From Salinivirgaceae bacterium (GTDB lineage: Bacteria; Bacteroidota; Bacteroidia; Bacteroidales; SZUA-534), in assembly GCA_017645945.1 (NCBI GenBank), contig JAGCNL010000053.1, positions 7,816-71,815 of the forward strand: a stretch of DNA of 64,000 bases. Direction: 5' to 3'. The notes under the pieces are model-generated. The model did not search any database, was not told the origin of the DNA, and saw only the letters and a program-made list of their open reading frames with translations. Both the position numbers and the translations under genes were made by a program. Positions within the stretch are counted from its first letter, which is position 1; each line of letters begins with the position of its first letter. This document shows, one piece after another, positions 4,024 to 55,403 of this stretch.

Positions 4024-7005
4024 TTGCTACTTTTCAAAGTTCGTTCCCGAAACACTTTTGTTATGGATATGATTAACGACCACGAGGCTTTTGATTTGTT
4101 TTTCAAGAACAGCAACGATTTGATGCTTGTCTTGGACTCCGACTGCCATATCCTGAAAATCAACCCCACGTGTGTGAAAATCTTTGGTTATCAGCCCGAA
4201 GAGCTTATCGGGCGGCACATCATGGAGCTTGTGCACACTGATGATAAGGAGCGTGGCGAGCAGCAGATTAAGGAGATTTATAAGACAGAGGGCGTCAATT
4301 TTCCGTTCAAAAACAAGGCTTTGCACAAAGATGGCAGCACGCGCTGGCTCAGCTGGTCGTCGTGCGTCCTGGGCGGCATTTTGTATGCCACGGGTACCGA
4401 TGTGACAAGGCAGGAGGAGAGTCTGCGCAACATTGAGTACATCCGCCGCCGCTATATGAAACGCAGCGACTCGGGCATCGGCCTTTGGGAGGTCAATCTC
4501 GAAACCCGCGAATTCTCTGGCGATGAGCATGTTTATGAGATTTTCGGTTTGCCTTACCAAAGCAGCCAGACATTGCGCACGCTTGAGTTCGTGCTAACGC
4601 CCGAGGGCCGCGAGGTGGTCGTCTCGCACCTTAATAAGGTTATCTGCTCCAACATCTTCGAGAATTTCGACTGCGAGATTATCCGTCAGACCGACAAGCA
4701 GAAACGCACCATCAGTGTGACGGGAAACTTCATTTTCGACAAGGATTTCAGCGTCAAGTCGTTCTTTGGCACCATGCAGGACATCACTGAGCAGACGGAG
4801 ATTAAGCGCCAGTACGATGAGCTTTCAAAGCTTCAGCACACCATTCTCGATGCCATCGACTGCGGCGTGCTGCTGGTCAACAAGGGGCGTATCCAGTGGT
4901 TCAACAAGAAGGAGGCTTTCGGCTACACCGAAGATGATATGCGCGAACAGCGTTACGAGTTTGTTGATGTGTTCAAAGACCCCGCAATGGTTGCCAAACT
5001 GCGAGGCGACGGCTACAATCTGATGCGCATCGGCGTGACATATTCAACTGAGTTTGAGGTATATAAGAAAGACCGCACGCTGGCGTGGGTTCACGTCACG
5101 GGCAAAATGCTGTCCGACGAGAGCGTTGTCTGGACCATCACCGACATCACCGCGCAGAAGCAGGCGTCGCTGTCAATCGCCAAGAGCCACGCCCTGCTCA
5201 AGGACACCCAAAGAGCCGCCCATATTGGCAGCTGGGAGACCATCGGCAATGGCAAGTCAATCAAGCTTGACGATGTGGCCTGCCGCATTTTCGACATCAA
5301 GCGGAGCAACCACACCATGACGGTCAGCAGTCTCATGCGGCTGCTCGACCAGAAAGGGCGCGACAGTCTGCGGGCAAGCGTCAAATCGAACATTATCAAG
5401 GACGATACATTCATCAATTTCAACTGCCACATAACCACGCAGGCAGGTAACACACGGCACATATTTGTTACGGGCGACAACCTTAACTGGGGCACGGAGT
5501 CGGGGCGTATTGTCGGCATTGTTCAGGATGTTACGCGCATGGAGCAGCTTGAGCAGGAGCTGGAGGAGAAGCGAACCCGCATTGATGCCATCTATGCCAC
5601 CTCGCCAACAGCCATCGGTCTGATTCACGGTTACGACATTTTCGACTGCAACAAGGAGTTCTACAGAATTACAGGCTATCAGGCCGATGAGTTGAAGGAC
5701 AAAGGTCTGCTGAGGCTGATGTCGCCGAGCGAAATCGACCGTCTGAACCGCAAGGGCTTGCAGTCGAACGACAATGTGACTGTTCACTCGTTCGAGACCG
5801 TTTTTCTGCGCAAGACAGGCCGCAAAGTCAACGTGCTGCTGAATTTCTCAATCTTCGGACAGACCGACGGCAGCCCTCGAAGCAGCATTATATCCGTCAC
5901 CGACATCACAGCGCTCAAGATTGCCCAACAAACTAACTTTCAGCTTATTGAGTCAATCAACCAGTCGCAGAACGAGTTTATCATCTACGACAGCAACTGG
6001 ATTGCCGTCTATGCCAACGACAAGGTGTTTATGGCGCATAACTATGAATCAAAAGACATTATCGGCCAGCGTATCCGAGAATTTGATTTAGATAACAAGC
6101 AGCAAAACATTCTGTATCAAAAGCTTATGGAAACTGGCAGTGTCAACGGCGAATTCCAGGTGCGTAACGGCAACATGATAATATGGTATTCGGTCCGCAT
6201 ATCGCCAATCTACGACAAGAACAAGGTGATTACGGGTTATGTGTCAGTGAAAGAGGACATTACAACCCGTAAGAACATTGAGATGGAGCTGATGAAGGCA
6301 CTGAGCAAGGCCGAGCAGTCGGACCGCATGAAGGAGACGCTGCTGCAAAACCTGTCGCATGAGATACGCACGCCGCTCAACGCCATTTCGGGCTTTGCCG
6401 AAATCATCAGCGAGAGCTCTGGCCTGCCTGACGACACATTGAAATCATACACAAATATTATAAGCAACAGTTGCAACCAGCTCATGGGCATTGTGTCTGA
6501 CATGCTTGTGATGTCTGATATCCAGCTTGGGCGCACATCGGTTGCCGTCACACGCATCGTTCCTGACGAGATTCTCCGCAGGCTGCACCGAATCTTCCTT
6601 CAGCAGGCTCAGGCCAAAAACATCACGCTGGAATATGTCGAGCCAGCTGACAGCAGCGTGGTCATCTACACCGATGAGACCAAGCTTGTGCAGATTGTTT
6701 CGAATTTGCTCACAAACGCCATAAAATTCACTGATAAGGGAGGAGTGTGGTTCGGCTATTCAGCCAACGACAAGCAAATCGAATTTTACGTCAGAGACAC
6801 GGGAATCGGCATTTCGCAGGAGGACATGCGCCAGATTTTCGACCGCTTCTTCCAAGTCACCTCCAACAAGGCCAGCAGCTACGGCACTGGACTCGGACTT
6901 GCCATCTCGCAGTCGTTTGCCAAGATGCTTCACGGCGAGCTTAATGTGGAGTCGGAGCTTGGAAAGGGCACTGTTTTCCATCTGATAATCCCTATAAAAG
7001 TCTAA
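4024..7005 (+). CDS. multi-PAS sensor histidine kinase
   Basis: 993 aa ORF with several PAS-like repeats. H-box LSHEIRTPLNAISGF and ATPase motifs (DTGIGI, GTGLGLAI). The true start may be the internal Met at 4063 (MDMINDHEAF). Confidence 0.85.
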   Translation: MLLFKVRSRNTFVMDMINDHEAFDLFFKNSNDLMLVLDSDCHILKINPTCVKIFGYQPEELIGRHIMELVHTDDKERGEQQIKEIYKTEGVNFPFKNKALHKDGSTRWLSWSSCVLGGILYATGTDVTRQEESLRNIEYIRRRYMKRSDSGIGLWEVNLETREFSGDEHVYEIFGLPYQSSQTLRTLEFVLTPEGREVVVSHLNKVICSNIFENFDCEIIRQTDKQKRTISVTGNFIFDKDFSVKSFFGTMQDITEQTEIKRQYDELSKLQHTILDAIDCGVLLVNKGRIQWFNKKEAFGYTEDDMREQRYEFVDVFKDPAMVAKLRGDGYNLMRIGVTYSTEFEVYKKDRTLAWVHVTGKMLSDESVVWTITDITAQKQASLSIAKSHALLKDTQRAAHIGSWETIGNGKSIKLDDVACRIFDIKRSNHTMTVSSLMRLLDQKGRDSLRASVKSNIIKDDTFINFNCHITTQAGNTRHIFVTGDNLNWGTESGRIVGIVQDVTRMEQLEQELEEKRTRIDAIYATSPTAIGLIHGYDIFDCNKEFYRITGYQADELKDKGLLRLMSPSEIDRLNRKGLQSNDNVTVHSFETVFLRKTGRKVNVLLNFSIFGQTDGSPRSSIISVTDITALKIAQQTNFQLIESINQSQNEFIIYDSNWIAVYANDKVFMAHNYESKDIIGQRIREFDLDNKQQNILYQKLMETGSVNGEFQVRNGNMIIWYSVRISPIYDKNKVITGYVSVKEDITTRKNIEMELMKALSKAEQSDRMKETLLQNLSHEIRTPLNAISGFAEIISESSGLPDDTLKSYTNIISNSCNQLMGIVSDMLVMSDIQLGRTSVAVTRIVPDEILRRLHRIFLQQAQAKNITLEYVEPADSSVVIYTDETKLVQIVSNLLTNAIKFTDKGGVWFGYSANDKQIEFYVRDTGIGISQEDMRQIFDRFFQVTSNKASSYGTGLGLAISQSFAKMLHGELNVESELGKGTVFHLIIPIKV

Positions 7006-7103: not shown

Positions 7104-7187
7104 GCCTAAGTGGCGGAATTGGTAGACGCGCTAGTTTCAGGGACTAGTGTTAGCAATAACGTGCAGGTTCGAGTCCTGTCTTAGGCA
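7104..7187 (+). tRNA. tRNA-Leu (anticodon CAG)
   Basis: Acceptor GCCTAAG/CTTAGGC. D-arm GTGGCGGAATTGGTAGACGC as in bacterial tRNA-Leu. Anticodon stem CTAGT/ACTAG with loop TTCAGGG. Long variable arm. T-arm GGTTCGAGTCC. Confidence 0.9.
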
Positions 7188-7210
7188 CTACAAAAAGTTC
7201 TTTATTTAAT

Positions 7211-7297
7211 GCCCAGATGGTGAAATTGGTAGACACGCTACTTTGAGGGGGTAGTGGCCGTTAGGCTGTGCAAGTTCGAGTCTTGTTCTGGGCACCA
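7211..7297 (+). tRNA. tRNA-Leu (anticodon GAG), CCA encoded
   Basis: Acceptor GCCCAGA/TCTGGGC. Anticodon stem CTACT/GGTAG (one G-U pair) with loop TTGAGGG. Long variable arm. T-arm AGTTCGAGTCT. Ends ACCA. Confidence 0.9.
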
Positions 7298-7328: not shown

Positions 7329-7380
7329 GCCCGATTTTGAGCGTTTACGGCGCTGTCGCGATGGTTGCGGGGGAACAACG

Positions 7381-7486
7381 AAAAAACGGCTCCGATGGGG
7401 AGTCGGGAGCCGTTTCTGATTGTTGCGGACGGGGAGTCCGCGTAAGCAACTAAAAACTATTATGAAGAAACATGTCTTTATCAGAC
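7381..7486 (-). ncRNA. candidate small RNA, copy 1 (two CUCCCC loops; paralog at 54268-54378)
   Basis: On the minus strand it is preceded by TACATTTG. It contains hairpin GCGGAC-UCCCC-GUCCGC (7425-7441) and terminator AACGGCUCC(C)GA-CUCCCCA-UCGGAGCCGUU plus U6 (7381-7414). About 80% identical by eye to the second copy. The boundaries are inferred. Confidence 0.6.
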
Positions 7487-7490
7487 GATG

Positions 7491-7498
7491 CAAATGTA
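7491..7498 (-). promoter_or_regulatory. -7 box TACATTTG of sRNA copy 1
   Basis: Minus-strand TACATTTG matches TAnnTTTG and is conserved in copy 2. Confidence 0.55.
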
Positions 7499-7520: not shown

Positions 7521-7557
7521 GTTAAGAACAGGTTAAAAAGAGTTAATGAAAAGTTAA
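7521..7557 (-). promoter_or_regulatory. four phased TTAAC boxes upstream of sRNA copy 1 (candidate response-regulator site)
   Basis: GTTAA on the plus strand at 7521, 7532, 7542 and 7553 (spacing 11, 10, 11). Same arrangement and spacing in copy 2. Confidence 0.5.
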
Positions 7558-16541: not shown

Positions 16542-17936
16542 TTACTTCTTTAAAACAAAAAATTCAACTCGGCGATTGTTGCTCTTGCCTTGGTCGGTCA
16601 GGTTGGTGTCGATTGGGCGGGTTTTGCCGTAGCCTTTTGCTTGCAGCATGTTGGGGCTTATCCCCTTCGATACCAAATAGTTGACAACGGCTTGTGCGCG
16701 TGCTTGACTCAGTTTCAGGTTCAGCTCGTCGGAGCCAACATTGTCAGTGTGACCGCTGATTTCAATCTGACTTACAGTGCCTTCGGCCAGGAATGCGGCA
16801 ATCTTGTCGAGCTCGGCATTCGACTGTGGCAGCAGCGTGCTCTTGCCAGTCTCGAAGAAGATGTTGTTCAGAATAAGCGCAGAGCCTTCCTCAATGTTGC
16901 GGAGGCCGTCAGTGAAGGGGTCTTCGGGGATTTCAGGCTGAACGAAAACAACCTTGCCGCTGTTGTGGCAGTTGTTCTTGTCGGAAACGGTGTAGGTGTA
17001 GGTTCCGGCCGGCAGATTGGTCAGCTTCTGCCCTGTCGCGCCATTCGACCATTTGATGCTGTATGGCGGTGTTCCGCCCGATATGCCCAGGCTGATGACG
17101 CCGTCGTCGATGATGCGCTGGATTTTGCCGGTCACAGGGTCGAGACCGCCAGTGTAGGCAGAGTCAACAATCACTGTTTCAAGACCTTTCGGCACGCAGG
17201 CGCACACCTCGCAGGTGGTCAGCGGACGAATCTCAAAATCGTCGAAGAAATAGTATGCGTATTTCTTGCCTTTCTTGTTCTGCACGTCCTTGCCGGTCAC
17301 CACGTAGTTGGTGTTCTCGTAGTTCTTGAAGTTGCCCACGGTGAAGAACATCTCGTTGCCCGATGCGGTGTAGAGCATGCAGTAGTGCTTCCACTCGTCG
17401 GTGTTGTCGAGGAACAGGCCCGACTCGTTGTTAAGCTGGCCGTTGTAGTTCAGGAAAGTGGTGTTGCCGTTGGCGATTTTCTCCTGCGAGAAGTATATGC
17501 TCAACTGGTCGACAGCGAACATTGAGCCGTTGGCCAGCTTGTACCAGAACGAAACGCAGTAAACCTCTCCCGCTTTCATCGGGCTTTTGAGCTCGCCCTG
17601 AATGTACTCGCGGTAGTCGCGGTCAGAGCCGGTCAGAATGGCGCCCATGTAGCCTTTTCCGCTGTGCGGCTGGCTGTAGCCGGCAAAGTTGTCGGGCACT
17701 TTCACGTCGCCCGTGCTGCATTTGTTGAAATAGTCGGGCGTGGTGAACGACGGGTATGTCCAGTGCGGTATCAGCCTGTGCGACTGGTCGTTGTAGATGT
17801 AGGTTTCAGGGCACTTCTCATACTGTTCGAAACTCGGGTTGTAAACCATATTGGTCTCATCTTCAACTTCTTGTGCCATAAGAAGTGCCGGACAGGCGCA
17901 CAAGATTCCGAGTAAATTGACAAATTTTTTGTTCAT
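16542..17936 (-). CDS. OmpA-family (OmpA/MotB C-terminal domain) protein with a SprB-like repeat
   Basis: C-terminus SGHTDNVGSDELNLKLSQARAQAVVNYLVSKG...NRRVEFFV is a classic OmpA_C peptidoglycan-binding domain. GGTPPYSIKWSNG resembles a SprB repeat. The probable start is MNKKFVNLLG (ATG 17934-17936), not the track start at 17963. Confidence 0.8.
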   Translation of the reverse strand: MNKKFVNLLGILCACPALLMAQEVEDETNMVYNPSFEQYEKCPETYIYNDQSHRLIPHWTYPSFTTPDYFNKCSTGDVKVPDNFAGYSQPHSGKGYMGAILTGSDRDYREYIQGELKSPMKAGEVYCVSFWYKLANGSMFAVDQLSIYFSQEKIANGNTTFLNYNGQLNNESGLFLDNTDEWKHYCMLYTASGNEMFFTVGNFKNYENTNYVVTGKDVQNKKGKKYAYYFFDDFEIRPLTTCEVCACVPKGLETVIVDSAYTGGLDPVTGKIQRIIDDGVISLGISGGTPPYSIKWSNGATGQKLTNLPAGTYTYTVSDKNNCHNSGKVVFVQPEIPEDPFTDGLRNIEEGSALILNNIFFETGKSTLLPQSNAELDKIAAFLAEGTVSQIEISGHTDNVGSDELNLKLSQARAQAVVNYLVSKGISPNMLQAKGYGKTRPIDTNLTDQGKSNNRRVEFFVLKK

Positions 17937-51593: not shown

Positions 51594-51837
51594 ATATTAT
51601 TTTGTAATTATTTGTTTATCAAATGATTAATTATTAAATACATATTTTTTGCAAATACGGCAAAAGTAAAAGATTTTTGGCACGAAAATCCGTTTTTAGA
51701 AAATAGTAAGCATATATTTCATATGTATGGATTTTGAACGCCAAATAAAGCGTTGGCACACGAAAGGTTTAATCCGTTTTCCTCGCATGCAAATAATAAA
51801 ATAGTGTCGCTTTGTGCGAATCCGTTGGGGCAATGCT

Positions 51838-52536
51838 CTACCCTTTCACCCCAAGAATATACCCCGTTCCGTGCACGTTGGTAATCTCAATGTTCGGGTC
51901 GGATTTCAGGTATTTGCGCAGTTTGGTGATGAAAACGTCCATACTGCGGGCGGTGAAATAGCCAGTCTCGCCCCAGATTTTCTCAAGCGTCAGATTGCGG
52001 TCCACCACGTTGTTGACGTTCTGATTCAGGAAGTAAAGCAGGTCGGCCTCTTTGGGCGAGAGTTTGGTTTGCGAACCATCTTCAAACGTCAGGGTGCGGT
52101 TCTTCACGTTGAACACATAGCGGCCAATCGTCAGTTCTTCGACGGAATTATCGAGCTGCGGGCTTGCAGGCGTGCGCTTCAGAATGGCTTTTATCTTATA
52201 GATAAGCAGTTCAGAATCAAATGGTTTGGTGATATAATCGTCGGCACCAATCTTGTAGCCTTTAATCATATCTTCCTTCATATTCTTGGCTGTCAGATAG
52301 ATAATCGGTATGGCAGGTTTCAACTGCTTGATTTCGGCACCAATGGTGAAGCCGTCGACGTGGGGCAGCATCACATCCAAAATGCAAAGGTCGAACTGCC
52401 CTGCCTTGAAGGTGGACACTGCGTTCAGGCCATCATCGACAAGCGTAACGTCCAATTCGTTCATTTCCAGGAACGAACGCAGCACCGAGCCGAAATTCAC
52501 ATCGTCCTCAACCAAAAGAATCTGTTGCTTTGACAT
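51838..52536 (-). CDS. OmpR/PhoB-family response regulator (RprY-like)
   Basis: 232 aa ORF. Receiver domain (ILLVEDD, LDVMLP, KPF) plus a winged-helix C-terminus. Downstream of its kinase. Confidence 0.9.
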   Translation of the reverse strand: MSKQQILLVEDDVNFGSVLRSFLEMNELDVTLVDDGLNAVSTFKAGQFDLCILDVMLPHVDGFTIGAEIKQLKPAIPIIYLTAKNMKEDMIKGYKIGADDYITKPFDSELLIYKIKAILKRTPASPQLDNSVEELTIGRYVFNVKNRTLTFEDGSQTKLSPKEADLLYFLNQNVNNVVDRNLTLEKIWGETGYFTARSMDVFITKLRKYLKSDPNIEITNVHGTGYILGVKG

Positions 52537-52548
52537 ATCTATAAGTAT

Positions 52549-54123
52549 TTATGATTCAACGTTTTCATCGATTGTCGGCAGCCAGATTTCGAAGGTGCTC
52601 CCCTCGCCTTTCTGACTCGACACTTTGATTTCGCCCTTGCACGAGAGCACAATGGCCTTCACGTAACTCAATCCGAGCCCGAACCCTTTGACAGTGTGCA
52701 CGTTACCCGTCGGGTGGCGGTAGAACTTCTCGAACACCTTCTCCTGCGTCTCCTTGTCCATACCTATTCCCTTGTCGCTCACCGAGATAAGCAGGTCGGT
52801 GCCAATGTTGCGGGTGGTGACGGTTATGTCGGGCGGCGTATCGATTGAGTATTTATTGGCATTATCCAACAGGTTGTAAATCACATTGATAAAGTGCGAT
52901 TGGTCGACGCGGGCAAAATCGTTTTTGGCATTGTTGACAAGTTTGATTGTGCCGCCACGGTGCTCAACCTGAAGGCTGATATTGCTCACCGCCTTCTCAA
53001 TAAACGGCTGAACGTGAGTGGGTTGCAAGTTCAGATTAAAATCTTTCTTGTCGAGCATCGACATTTGCAGCACCGTCTCCACCTGACGGTTCATTCGGCG
53101 GTTCTCCTCCTTGATAATGCTTGTGAAACGCTGAATTTTCTCGGGGTCACCAATCACCGACGGCGACGTGATTGAATCGGCAGCCAACTGAATTGTGGCC
53201 AGCGGCGTCTTAAACTCGTGCGTCATATTGTTCACAAAATCGGTCTTCACCTCCGACGTGCGTTTTTGATCAACCATTGTGCGGATTGTCACCCAAAATG
53301 TTATCAATATGATAGTTGTGAACAAAACCGAGCCCCATATTGGCAGCATCACCGAACTGTAAATCACGTTGCGGCGGTCGGGAAAATAGACCGAGAGTTT
53401 CTCGTCGTGCTGCGCGAAATCGTTGGGAAACAGGCTTGTTTTGAATGTCCGCTTCTGACTTTTGTAGCCCTTCGATTTCAGATTCTCATACGGCACACCC
53501 TTGCTGTCGGTGACGGCGAACTCAAACGGAAGGTCGATGCCCGCGTTGCGGAACTCAAAGGCCAGCGTGGGCTTGATGGTTGTGAAATCGACGCGCTCGC
53601 TGATTGGGCGGTCCTTGATGTTGAACTCGAAAAGCATCTGCTCCATCAGTTGCTCCATCCCCGCGCGCCCCCATCCGCCTCGGCCCTCGGGCTGAGTAAC
53701 CGACGAGTAGGCTTGGAACGACACATTTCCGCCATCGACAACGGTATCAATCTGATAACTAATGGTTTCCGTATTGCCATTCCTCTCCTTTTTCATCTTC
53801 GAAAGGTCGATGACGTGCTCCTTGCTGCGGTTGCCGAAATCGCTCAGCGTCATAATGAGCGATTCCTCCTGACGGTTGCGAGCCTTGCCTGCCATTCCCG
53901 ACATAAAGTTCGATATGAAAAATGCATTCTGATTGCGCTCGATGCGGAAAGCCGCATTCTGCAAGGCAAAGTTGACGTGCTGCGCAAACTGCTCGTCGCG
54001 CACCGAGATGGCCTTGCGAACCCAGAAAATCTGCACGGCGATGATGCCAAAAAGCGACACTATCATCAGTGCCAGAATGCCCGAAAAACGTTGTCGTTTC
54101 ACTGCTTTAGAATTTTGATTCAA
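52549..54123 (-). CDS. sensor histidine kinase (RprX-like)
   Basis: 524 aa ORF with two TM segments. H-box MTHEFKTPLATI and ATPase motifs (DKGIGM, GFGLGLS). Confidence 0.9.
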   Translation of the reverse strand: MNQNSKAVKRQRFSGILALMIVSLFGIIAVQIFWVRKAISVRDEQFAQHVNFALQNAAFRIERNQNAFFISNFMSGMAGKARNRQEESLIMTLSDFGNRSKEHVIDLSKMKKERNGNTETISYQIDTVVDGGNVSFQAYSSVTQPEGRGGWGRAGMEQLMEQMLFEFNIKDRPISERVDFTTIKPTLAFEFRNAGIDLPFEFAVTDSKGVPYENLKSKGYKSQKRTFKTSLFPNDFAQHDEKLSVYFPDRRNVIYSSVMLPIWGSVLFTTIILITFWVTIRTMVDQKRTSEVKTDFVNNMTHEFKTPLATIQLAADSITSPSVIGDPEKIQRFTSIIKEENRRMNRQVETVLQMSMLDKKDFNLNLQPTHVQPFIEKAVSNISLQVEHRGGTIKLVNNAKNDFARVDQSHFINVIYNLLDNANKYSIDTPPDITVTTRNIGTDLLISVSDKGIGMDKETQEKVFEKFYRHPTGNVHTVKGFGLGLSYVKAIVLSCKGEIKVSSQKGEGSTFEIWLPTIDENVES

Positions 54124-54159
54124 ATTTAGTCAAAAGCCGGTTTGTTCCAGTTGACTTTG

Positions 54160-54167
54160 CAAATTTA
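54160..54167 (-). promoter_or_regulatory. candidate -7 box (TAAATTTG) for the kinase-regulator operon
   Basis: Minus-strand TAAATTTG lies 37 nt upstream of the ATG at 54123. Confidence 0.45.
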
Positions 54168-54194
54168 TCGTTCCTGCTCCACTTTCCGCGTGGT

Positions 54195-54231
54195 TTAACG
54201 TTTCGTTAACTCTTTTTAACAGCGCCTTAAC
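54195..54231 (+). promoter_or_regulatory. four phased TTAAC boxes between divergent promoters (candidate response-regulator site)
   Basis: TTAAC at 54195, 54206, 54216 and 54227 (spacing 11, 10, 11). Same as at 7521-7557. Confidence 0.5.
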
Positions 54232-54253
54232 CAGCGCGAGCCGTTTGCCAACA

Positions 54254-54261
54254 TACATTTG
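54254..54261 (+). promoter_or_regulatory. -7 box TACATTTG of sRNA copy 2
   Basis: Identical octamer to copy 1. The flanking TTTGC-N5-TACATTTGCA is conserved. Confidence 0.55.
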
Positions 54262-54267
54262 CAACGT

Positions 54268-54378
54268 CTGATTAGGACAATATTTTCTTCATAATAGGTT
54301 TTTAGTTGCTATGCGGACTCCCCGTCCGCCAAAATCAGAAACGGCTTCCGACTCCCCATCGGTGGCCGTTTCACTTTT
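54268..54378 (+). ncRNA. candidate small RNA, copy 2 (paralog of 7381-7486)
   Basis: Contains GCGGAC-UCCCC-GUCCGC (54312-54328) and a terminator-like hairpin AACGGCUUCCGA-CUCCCCA-UCGGUGGCCGUU (54340-54370), followed by UCACUUUU. The boundaries are inferred. Confidence 0.55.
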
Positions 54379-54382
54379 ATCC

Positions 54383-54420
54383 AAAAAAAGAAGACACAAA
54401 CCAATGCAGCTTGTGTCTTC
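54383..54420 (-). terminator. intrinsic terminator after the 54443-55210 gene
   Basis: Minus strand GAAGACACAA-gctgcattggt-TTGTGTCTTC (10-bp perfect stem) followed by T7. Confidence 0.8.
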
Positions 54421-54442
54421 TGTAGTGGAGAACAATCTCACT

Positions 54443-55210
54443 TTATTTTTTCTGGTTATTACCCATTATCATATTGTATTGCACGGTGATGTAACCGTCG
54501 CTCGGGAAAATCTTGTTAGCCAGCGTGATAACGGCTTCGGCATCTTTCTTGCGCTTGTCTGCCACCAAATCCTGAGTATATTTCATAATGCCGTCAACAA
54601 TCATGCTTTTTACAATTGGGTCGGGCTTGATTGTGCCGCCATTGACAATCTGCTCGGTGAGTTTGGTGCGGGCCTCGCTCATTTCGTGCTCACCTTGCGT
54701 GACATTGTTCGACATGCATTTGAGAATGCCTGAATAGTACATGAACAGATAGTCGGTTTTCTGGTTCAGTTTCTCGTAGTTCTTGGCCGCTGCTGCCGCC
54801 TTTGTGTAGTTTCCTTTGTCGAAATTCGTCTTAATCTCAGCTTTAACGTGTTTCTTCAGCTCGTTGATGAAATCGAGATTCTGCGCGTAGAGCTCGCCTT
54901 CAACATCCTTGCGGATGAATTTCTGCGTGTATTTGATGGCTTGACGCATGCCGTCTTTGTAATCAGCGGCAACTTCAGCGTCGGGTGACTCATAAAGTTT
55001 CACCATGCACATGGCTGCATAAAGGTGCGGCTCAGCCTCGCGGCTTGCAGCGGGGTCTTCACACATATCTTCGGCTTTGAACAGGCAAATCTCATATTTG
55101 CCCGAATTGTAAAGCTTTGCAAGCTTCTGATTATGCCCGCCTTTCACTTGCGCAAACGAGCTTGCGCAAACAAGCAGGCTTATTGCCGTATAAACAAGAC
55201 GTAAATTCAT
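54443..55210 (-). CDS. secreted helical-repeat protein, unknown function
   Basis: Probable start MNLRLVYTAISLLVCASSFAQ (ATG 55208-55210); the track ORF extends to 55291. Composition is alpha-helical and TPR-like. Confidence 0.5.
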   Translation of the reverse strand: MNLRLVYTAISLLVCASSFAQVKGGHNQKLAKLYNSGKYEICLFKAEDMCEDPAASREAEPHLYAAMCMVKLYESPDAEVAADYKDGMRQAIKYTQKFIRKDVEGELYAQNLDFINELKKHVKAEIKTNFDKGNYTKAAAAAKNYEKLNQKTDYLFMYYSGILKCMSNNVTQGEHEMSEARTKLTEQIVNGGTIKPDPIVKSMIVDGIMKYTQDLVADKRKKDAEAVITLANKIFPSDGYITVQYNMIMGNNQKK

Positions 55211-55403
55211 CGGTGTATAATTTATTCCACAAAAAAAATCAAATGTTGCTAAATAAACAATTTTTTTAAGCCTAATATTATGCCGAAACACGCTAAATAA
55301 TCAACAACAAATACACACAGATGCTTGAAAAACCAGCATCCATACATGTTTTCAAACCATCTCATTTATTCAACTTTCTGAACTTCAAATTTCAAAATTC
55401 TAA

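Follow-up and report, generated by a model that had tools for sequence, protein, structure and literature searches.

Same-sense arrays of repeats lying upstream of the core promoter, such as those of PhoB and of Bacillus subtilis PhoP, typically activate transcription. The Pho box of B. subtilis PhoP consists of TTAAC-like repeats in which the core TT(A/T/C)ACA occurs four times, and in the cpxP-cpxRA system a kinase-regulator operon is divergent from the gene of a small exported protein, with shared direct-repeat sites serving both promoters. The site of SphR is made of three or more CTTAACCT repeats with a period of 11 bp (PMC1906773), and Porphyromonas RprY has been reported to bind its own promoter (PMC5706477). 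In the open-access literature, with most subscription journals outside it, we found no operator or binding motif of the RprX/RprY type, no TTAAC repeats described for Bacteroidetes, nothing relevant on envelope-stress systems, and no small RNA (sRNA) linked in Bacteroidota with a two-component system of the classical kind.

The window, by which we mean the whole stretch of 64,000 nucleotides that was analysed, carries two copies of an sRNA gene, each preceded by four TTAAC boxes, and one of the two copies is divergent from a kinase-regulator operon. Judging from the comparisons reported below, the array of boxes is very probably the docking site of the adjoining type of regulator in dozens of species.

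Two TTAAC arrays and a kinase-regulator operon

The features of the two loci are the following.

54195-54231, + strand: array copy 2, a putative operator of four TTAAC boxes, motif positions read in the sequence (boxes at 54195-54199, 54206-54210, 54216-54220 and 54227-54231, by pattern match)
7521-7557, - strand: array copy 1, four TTAAC boxes (7553-7557, 7542-7546, 7532-7536 and 7521-7525), both array and boxes by pattern match; kinase-regulator pair absent nearby
54254-54261, + strand: -7 box TACATTTG of sRNA copy 2, 22 nt past box 4
7491-7498, - strand: -7 box TACATTTG of sRNA copy 1, 22 nt past box 4
54160-54167, - strand: TAAATTTG, in a conserved slot, the divergent -7 box of the kinase-regulator operon, with 27 nt between it and box 1
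54121-54128, - strand: another TAAATTTG, some 19 nt upstream of the kinase GTG, outside the conserved slot, read in the sequence
52549-54102, - strand: sensor histidine kinase, 517 aa, GTG start, HisKA and HATPase_c domains, from a public-contig gene call
51838-52536, - strand: OmpR/PhoB-family response regulator, RprY-like, 232 aa, Response_reg and Trans_reg_C domains
54265-54378, + strand: sRNA copy 2 (ends approximate), open and conserved at its 5' end, then hairpin 1 and a terminator hairpin that has a T-run
7378-7487, - strand: sRNA copy 1 (ends approximate), with a clean hairpin and T6 terminator, from alignment to copy 2

The initial annotation had described the same array of four TTAAC boxes, in steps of 11, 10 and 11 bp, ahead of both sRNA -7 boxes, and we confirm its coordinates. 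The start-to-start steps are identical in copy 1 and copy 2 and average 10.7 bp, which places all boxes on one face of the helix. Same-sense repeats about one helical turn apart and adjoining the core promoter form the layout of an OmpR/PhoB-type operator, as the initial annotation had argued from a phasing of about 10.5 bp, and this layout (11, 10 and 11 bp; 22 nt to the -7 box) is shared by copy 1, copy 2 and no fewer than 100 related loci. Its figure of 23 nt between box 4 and the -7 box comes from counting base to base; 22 nt lie between the two.

Chance does not account for the boxes in the window: the three-box pattern was found 4 times against 0.00 expected from 100 dinucleotide-preserving shuffles of the window, and the two-box pattern 4 times against 0.08 expected from such shuffles. 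The pattern scan of the 64 kb gave no further two-box site beyond both arrays. Overall the two copies are 83% identical, the likeness beginning 1-3 bases ahead of box 1; the spacer between boxes 3 and 4 differs at 5 of its 6 positions, while the four boxes are identical.

A scan of the window for sigma-70-type promoters is uninformative for Bacteroidota. The definition of the -33 motif comes from Bacteroides fragilis, and in Flavobacterium the motif was not found globally (PMC7366714); because this motif is not universal in the phylum, the absence of a -33 element at the sRNA promoters argues only weakly for activation.

At copy 2 the gene order is kinase, regulator and then secA. The kinase starts at the GTG at 54102, in agreement with the gene call on public contigs, and we rejected a TTG start. 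The kinase matches HisKA (3.8e-14) and HATPase_c (1.9e-24) in Pfam and, as read from its translation, has two predicted membrane spans around an outer domain of about 230 aa, for which there is no Pfam match; the kinase of the sheep-rumen genome RGIG6642, the sister genome to which L026 and L065 belong, is 99% identical to it. Those kinase homologues that carry names put the organism among uncultured Salinivirgaceae of the order Bacteroidales. The Pfam matches of the regulator, Response_reg (2e-28) and Trans_reg_C (9e-16), place it in the OmpR/PhoB family. Its best NCBIfam match is RprY (NF051850) with 263.9 bits, which does not reach the equivalog cut-off of 370. RprY is likewise the best match of all 12 other array-linked regulators from different orders, with 245-315 bits, all below 370. 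Calling the operon RprX/RprY-like, as was done initially, is fair on the strength of this best match (264 bits), though the score stays short of equivalog level. A search of solved structures returned generic family members only, for example RegX3 and MtrA, at about 1e-30.

Conservation and linkage of the array

We chose relatives of the locus by the identity of their kinase protein (94% to about 50%), a choice independent of the DNA pattern. The array was present at 22 nt from the -7 box in 7 of the 8 evaluable kinase relatives, with the window's own contig (L001) counted. The others are as follows.

L004, kinase 80% identical: four boxes in steps of 11, 10 and 11; 22 nt; -7 box
L252, kinase 79% identical: four boxes in steps of 11, 10 and 11; 22 nt; -7 box
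L006, kinase 60% identical: five boxes in phase; 22 nt; -7 box
L249, kinase about 50% identical: four boxes; 22 nt; -7 box
L250, kinase about 50% identical: four boxes; 22 nt; -7 box
L251, kinase about 50% identical: five boxes in phase; 22 nt; -7 box
L007, kinase 53% identical: array absent

The spacers diverge among these relatives while the TTAAC boxes stay. The initial annotation had made its reading depend on the phasing being conserved in relatives, and conserved it is in these seven. The relative without an array, L007 (53%), counts against the reading of the array as an operator.

We also searched one genome per species, 185,579 species in all, for the exact pattern TTAAC-N6-TTAAC-N5-TTAAC-N6-TTAAC. 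The scan gave at least 119 loci, and about 105 of the matches listed belong to Bacteroidota or close allies. Since 20 specified bases match about once in 10^12 positions at equal base frequencies, some 1-10 chance matches would be expected in the whole collection. Carriers include Prolixibacteraceae, Draconibacterium, Mariniphaga, Maribellus, Carboxylicivirga, Saccharicrinis, Marinilabiliaceae and Lentimicrobiaceae, as well as Rikenellaceae, Salinivirgaceae, Chitinophagales, Pontibacter, Polaribacter and Tenacibaculum; among the matches listed (from at least 119) none came from Bacteroides, Prevotella or Porphyromonas.

Among the matches listed, tblastn with the window proteins found a kinase homologue at no fewer than 72 loci and a regulator homologue at no fewer than 57, and no kinase-regulator homologue by any of the 14 non-Bacteroidota arrays. 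The regulator homologues from other lineages are 47-59% identical to the window's regulator, and that of the sister genome (L026) is 97% identical. The loci were cut on 8-kb tiles, so that some are short of upstream flank; where at least 1.5 kb of flank was available, the kinase is divergent and directly upstream of box 1 in 61 of the 77 Bacteroidota-type loci listed. This result upholds the tie between the array and the adjacent OmpR-type system that had been proposed from the window, and because the linkage extends beyond the window copies, the array is not a by-product of sRNA duplication. The linkage to the kinase is an association and does not give the identity of the binder.

The linked loci share a rigid frame made of the kinase -7 box, 27 nt, the array, 21-23 nt and the target -7 box. 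The target -7 box (TAnnTTTG) lies 21-23 nt past box 4 in 59 of the 71 linked loci listed, and at exactly 22 nt in 37. On the other side, 60 of the 72 linked loci listed have a CAAAnnTA whose first base is at -36, -35 or -34 relative to box 1. The window's TAAATTTG at 54160-54167, with a start at -35, fills this slot; the divergent kinase promoter proposed initially is thus the conserved one, and the array of copy 2 does lie between it and the sRNA promoter. The consensus of the linked set is tTTAAC-tTTTC.-TTAACa...t-TTAACc.g.c.-TTAAC, with spacers that are nearly information-free, and the spacer from box 4 to the target -7 box holds no sequence information in this set.

In most lineages (L010-L128) the kinase ATG is found about 4-6 nt past its -7 box and about 40 nt from box 1, so near to the promoter that a leaderless or nearly leaderless kinase mRNA is predicted there. 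The window kinase starts 93 nt from box 1, with a leader of about 50 nt. The second TAAATTTG at 54121-54128 (- strand), absent from the initial annotation, is nearer to this start and is possibly a proximal kinase promoter specific to the lineage.

The regulator and the boxes also vary together. Two residues ahead of the RSMDV segment of the recognition helix co-vary with the base that follows TTAAC. When these residues are (I/L/V)G (L010, L012, L020, L025, L033, L053, L085, L090, L091, L096, L098, L099, L101, L110 and L120), all four boxes read TTAACA in 12 of the 15 loci with a full-length regulator. When they are T(A/T/G), which is the window's type, T, C or G follows box 1 in 31 of 32 cases and the later boxes, box 2 above all, are more often followed by A. 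The co-variation of residues and base fits regulator-operator co-evolution, with shared ancestry as a confounder.

In Polaribacter and Tenacibaculum at least 10 of the arrays listed are directly upstream of dapF, which encodes diaminopimelate epimerase, an enzyme of cell-wall precursor synthesis (L011, L015, L024, L036, L037, L046, L057, L102, L103 and L121; L107 has the same context without dapF). No kinase-regulator pair was found for these 10-11 arrays on the 0.3-7.9 kb of upstream flank that their 8 kb loci contain, and this, too, counts against the operator reading. The dapF array may be an unlinked member of the regulon or the site of a different regulator. We observed that box 1 of these arrays is preceded, at a distance of about 20 bp, by an extra TTAAC (TTTTAAC) that keeps roughly to the helical phase of the boxes.

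Secreted proteins and sRNAs as putative targets

In most lineages the target of the array is a gene for a secreted protein. Among the window's relatives (Salinivirgaceae and uncultured lineages allied to them) the target is either an sRNA or a non-coding stretch that resembles one. A first class of protein targets comprises signal-peptide proteins of 200-400 aa with a conserved K-I-x-K-I-x-x-N-G-x-x-x-x-D-T, often with a type IX secretion C-terminal domain (Por_Secre_tail, E down to 5e-17). The second class, found in the (I/L/V)G subgroup, comprises signal-peptide proteins of 78-108 aa rich in lysine and cysteine (16-25% lysine, 3-7 cysteines in K/C-rich tails) and without a Pfam match. Phosphate-uptake or phosphatase genes were not found among the array targets that we examined. 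The sRNA is a lineage-specific target of the array.

Several features mark the sRNAs as candidate trans-acting sRNAs: a predicted promoter of their own, an intrinsic terminator, the lack of a conserved reading frame and a compensated structure. The units are about 110 nt long, with fold z-scores of -3.8 for copy 2 and -6.0 for copy 1, and in the consensus fold of the family 9 of the 18 pairs of hairpin 1 and the terminator show a compensatory change. Neither copy matches Rfam 15 at the gathering threshold, the window giving three tRNAs only, and a permissive Rfam search of 54100-54450, the region of copy 2, yielded nothing with an E-value below 0.88.

We count 11 distinct sRNA loci: the window's two, L004/L005 (counted once), L006, L026, L065, L252, L135, L137, L209 and L226. 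The four-box array is present in all 11. Four of them (L135, L137, L209 and L226) were recovered in metagenomes through a pattern for the sRNA only; this pattern had at least 120 matches, and these four were the real homologues among the matches listed. We rejected the remaining listed matches as AT-rich chance, since they have neither the array nor the hairpin pair nor a family-like terminator. L209 is near-identical to the copy 1 locus and keeps its array. In all the unlinked sRNA copies (copy 1, L065, L226, L135 and L137) the array is kept and the kinase-side promoter is absent, and the array therefore belongs to the target promoter.

When the sRNA loci are aligned, the boxes, the -7 box, TCATAA and AGTTGC show no variation. 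The invariant 5' stretch UCAUAA...AGUUGC of the RNA is likely the seed, and it is complementary to a start-codon region of the form GCAACU...UUAUGA. A search of the 64-kb window for the seed complement returned the sRNA genes themselves only, and a duplex-energy scan of the window had no standout and no convincing gene-start site, its best site (16821-16870) being within a coding region away from gene starts.

Two reading frames overlap the copy 2 locus, and both are probably spurious. One is a 42-aa gene called on public contigs that spans the array (54130-54258, - strand), a frame that is not conserved in copy 1; the other, the sole ATG frame, is a 140-aa ORF (54311-54733, + strand) that begins within the sRNA, has no counterpart in copy 1 and runs into the convergent gene at 54443-55291.

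We also noted the surroundings of the two copies. Copy 1 converges on two adjacent tRNA-Leu genes (7104-7297, + strand; anticodons CAG and GAG), and copy 2 on an uncharacterised 282-aa gene, which has no Pfam or NCBIfam match and has its own 15-pair terminator hairpin in the region 54389-54421. In each of the two window sRNAs, CUCCCC is exposed in both hairpin loops (loop regions 54311-54328, 54345-54365, 7408-7425 and 7444-7460). This element is kept, or nearly so, in L135, L137 and L026 but not in L004, L006, L065 and L226, a distribution that makes it a feature of a sub-lineage and not the conserved seed of the family.

A further observation concerns the sister locus L026, which is 94.5% identical in DNA to window positions 51837-54220, the likeness ending inside the array after box 3. 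In its array (4688-4724) the spacer between boxes 3 and 4 reads CTGTTC, as it does in window copy 1; the body of the sRNA is different. A breakpoint inside the operator looks like the trace of cassette exchange or gene conversion between sRNA paralogs.

More distant kinase relatives give a hint as to where the sRNA came from. In L249, L250 and L251 (kinase about 50% identical) the array is followed by a non-coding stretch of 75-170 nt with a hairpin and T-run (reverse strand; L249:1462-2030, L250:1647-2030 and L251:1442-2030). The 5' motif of this stretch (ATAAATAG..GTTGTT) is related to the sRNA seed, and in L250 the stretch is about 140 nt ahead of a Por_Secre_tail gene. These loci hint that the sRNA derived from the leader of a target gene, with L249-L251 as a transition state. 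We also observed six kinase-linked loci of uncultured Bacteroidales (L042, L052, L059, L113, L118 and L128) with no plausible ORF right after the promoter, at a place where their close relatives L027, L050, L051, L076 and L082 have a secreted protein of about 200 aa. They may represent further non-coding targets.

Proposed operator function and comparison with known systems

We consider it likely, from the sequence comparisons above, that the array is the operator of the regulator at 51838-52536 and that the phosphorylated regulator activates both sRNA promoters. The membrane kinase (52549-54102) would phosphorylate the RprY-like regulator, which would then bind the array as two head-to-tail dimers on one helix face. 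Box 4 would be at about -40 to -36 from the start site, in the place of a -33 element, and the bound regulator would recruit RNA polymerase with the primary sigma factor to the -7 box 22 nt downstream. Both the sRNA beside the operon and its unlinked paralog (7378-7487) would thereby be switched on. A box 4 that abuts the -33 position, as PhoB-type activators do, and four boxes that fit two dimers make activation the likeliest outcome. Since the divergent -7 box is 27 nt away from the bound array, feedback on the expression of the kinase-regulator operon is probable too.

Alternatively, the regulator may bind the array as a repressor or a dual regulator, with occupancy of box 4 blocking the -33 position and release inducing the sRNA. 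It is conceivable that a box 4 in this place blocks the polymerase as well as it could help it, the lack of a -33 element does not demand an activator in a phylum where this element is not universal, and the -7 boxes TACATTTG are near consensus, which fits a promoter active alone. Same-sense arrays of the OmpR/PhoB family just upstream of a core promoter typically activate, however, and simple occlusion would tolerate variable positions, so that the strict register of 21-23 nt (59 of 71 loci listed) suits polymerase contact better. We thus regard repression as unlikely, though as a serious rival to activation.

It is also conceivable that the array is the Pho-box-like site of another regulator, for example the PhoB of the phylum, with the adjoining operon as one member of its regulon. 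The boxes resemble the four TT(A/T/C)ACA cores of B. subtilis PhoP, several of the kinase homologues are named 'PhoR' by JGI, and the 11-bp TTAAC repeats are close to the SphR Pho box of at least three CTTAACCT repeats (PMC1906773). Against this, the window regulator scores 158.9 bits with the Bacteroides PhoB model (cut-off 270), its second-best match after RprY, and the kinase 85.9 bits with the PhoR model (cut-off 500; NF053854 and NF053855 for the PhoB/PhoR pair). The targets examined are uncharacterised secreted proteins, small Lys/Cys-rich proteins and sRNAs, with no phosphate-uptake or phosphatase gene among them, and both the divergent pairing (61 of 77 loci listed) and the residue-base co-variation point to the neighbouring regulator. 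With the cut-offs missed and no phosphate-acquisition gene among the array targets examined, we rejected membership in the PhoB/PhoR phosphate regulon, and a site for another regulator appears quite improbable.

That the boxes have no regulatory role, being the remains of a recent duplication of the sRNA cassette or a structural bent-DNA element, is highly improbable: the mutual identity of the window copies proves little at 83% overall and their T-rich flanks (TTTTTAAC) could add curvature, but the boxes are invariant and the spacers diverged across kinase relatives of 50-94% and across orders of the phylum, and comparative data contradict a reading that leaves the linkage to one two-component family unexplained.

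Returning to the array as the operator of its neighbour, we tentatively put forward a broader picture, which we find somewhat harder to accept than to doubt. The window would hold one case of an undescribed phylum-wide module, made of an RprY-like pair, a universal four-box TTAAC operator placed rigidly between divergent promoters, and a single, dedicated exported target. In Salinivirgaceae the target would have been replaced by an sRNA, possibly from the 5' leader, that multiplied and spread the operator with it. The window's lineage would have put the operator and promoter frame to a second use, in the service of a non-coding RNA whose paralogs then spread.

If this is true, Bacteroidota would have their first example of an sRNA under the control of a two-component system. 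Little of the gene regulation of this phylum has been mapped well, and the array gives an unstudied signalling system testable targets. Its 37-bp signature of fixed geometry would locate direct targets in any genome, so that the regulon, the signal that induces it and what the conserved exported proteins do can be tested in cultivable Maribellus, Pontibacter, Saccharicrinis and Draconibacterium.

In kind the system appears ordinary, as a predicted OmpR-family operator, a divergent module with proposed autoregulation and sRNAs under putative two-component control. As an instance it is new, in that we found no published description of it in the open-access literature (most subscription journals lying outside it). 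The layout of the phylum-wide array module is identical to that of cpxP-cpxRA. The half-site differs, being TTAAC here and GTAAA in Cpx, and no sequence relationship of the targets to CpxP was found; some array targets carry a type IX secretion C-terminal domain, and in the window's lineage an sRNA replaces the exported protein.

The Pho boxes of SphR and PhoP have a near-identical grammar of 3-4 same-sense TTAAC-containing repeats at 10-11 bp (PMC1906773 for SphR), and like the window array they are placed beside the core promoter, where they replace an upstream promoter element. The window regulator differs from the Pho regulators in failing the Bacteroides PhoB model and in having targets that are not phosphate-acquisition genes. 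RprX/RprY of Bacteroides fragilis and RprY of P. gingivalis are the best family match, and the reported binding of RprY to its own promoter parallels the proposed autoregulation. Here the differences are that 13 of the 13 regulators tested are below the equivalog cut-off and that the known RprY targets nqrA, ahpC and chaperones are not beside arrays among the matches listed.

For the sRNAs the parallel is EnvZ-OmpR with OmrA/OmrB in Enterobacterales (PMC12692685 is a review), where an OmpR-family system drives two homologous sRNAs with a shared 5' seed, as is proposed for the window. The window differs in belonging to Bacteroidota, in having a sigma-ABfr -7 box, in having four TTAAC boxes instead of OmpR sites, in that one of its sRNAs is divergent from the operon of the system itself, and in giving no evidence of an Hfq-type chaperone. 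The spread of sRNA paralogs would thus parallel that of the enterobacterial OmrA/OmrB, with an independent origin.
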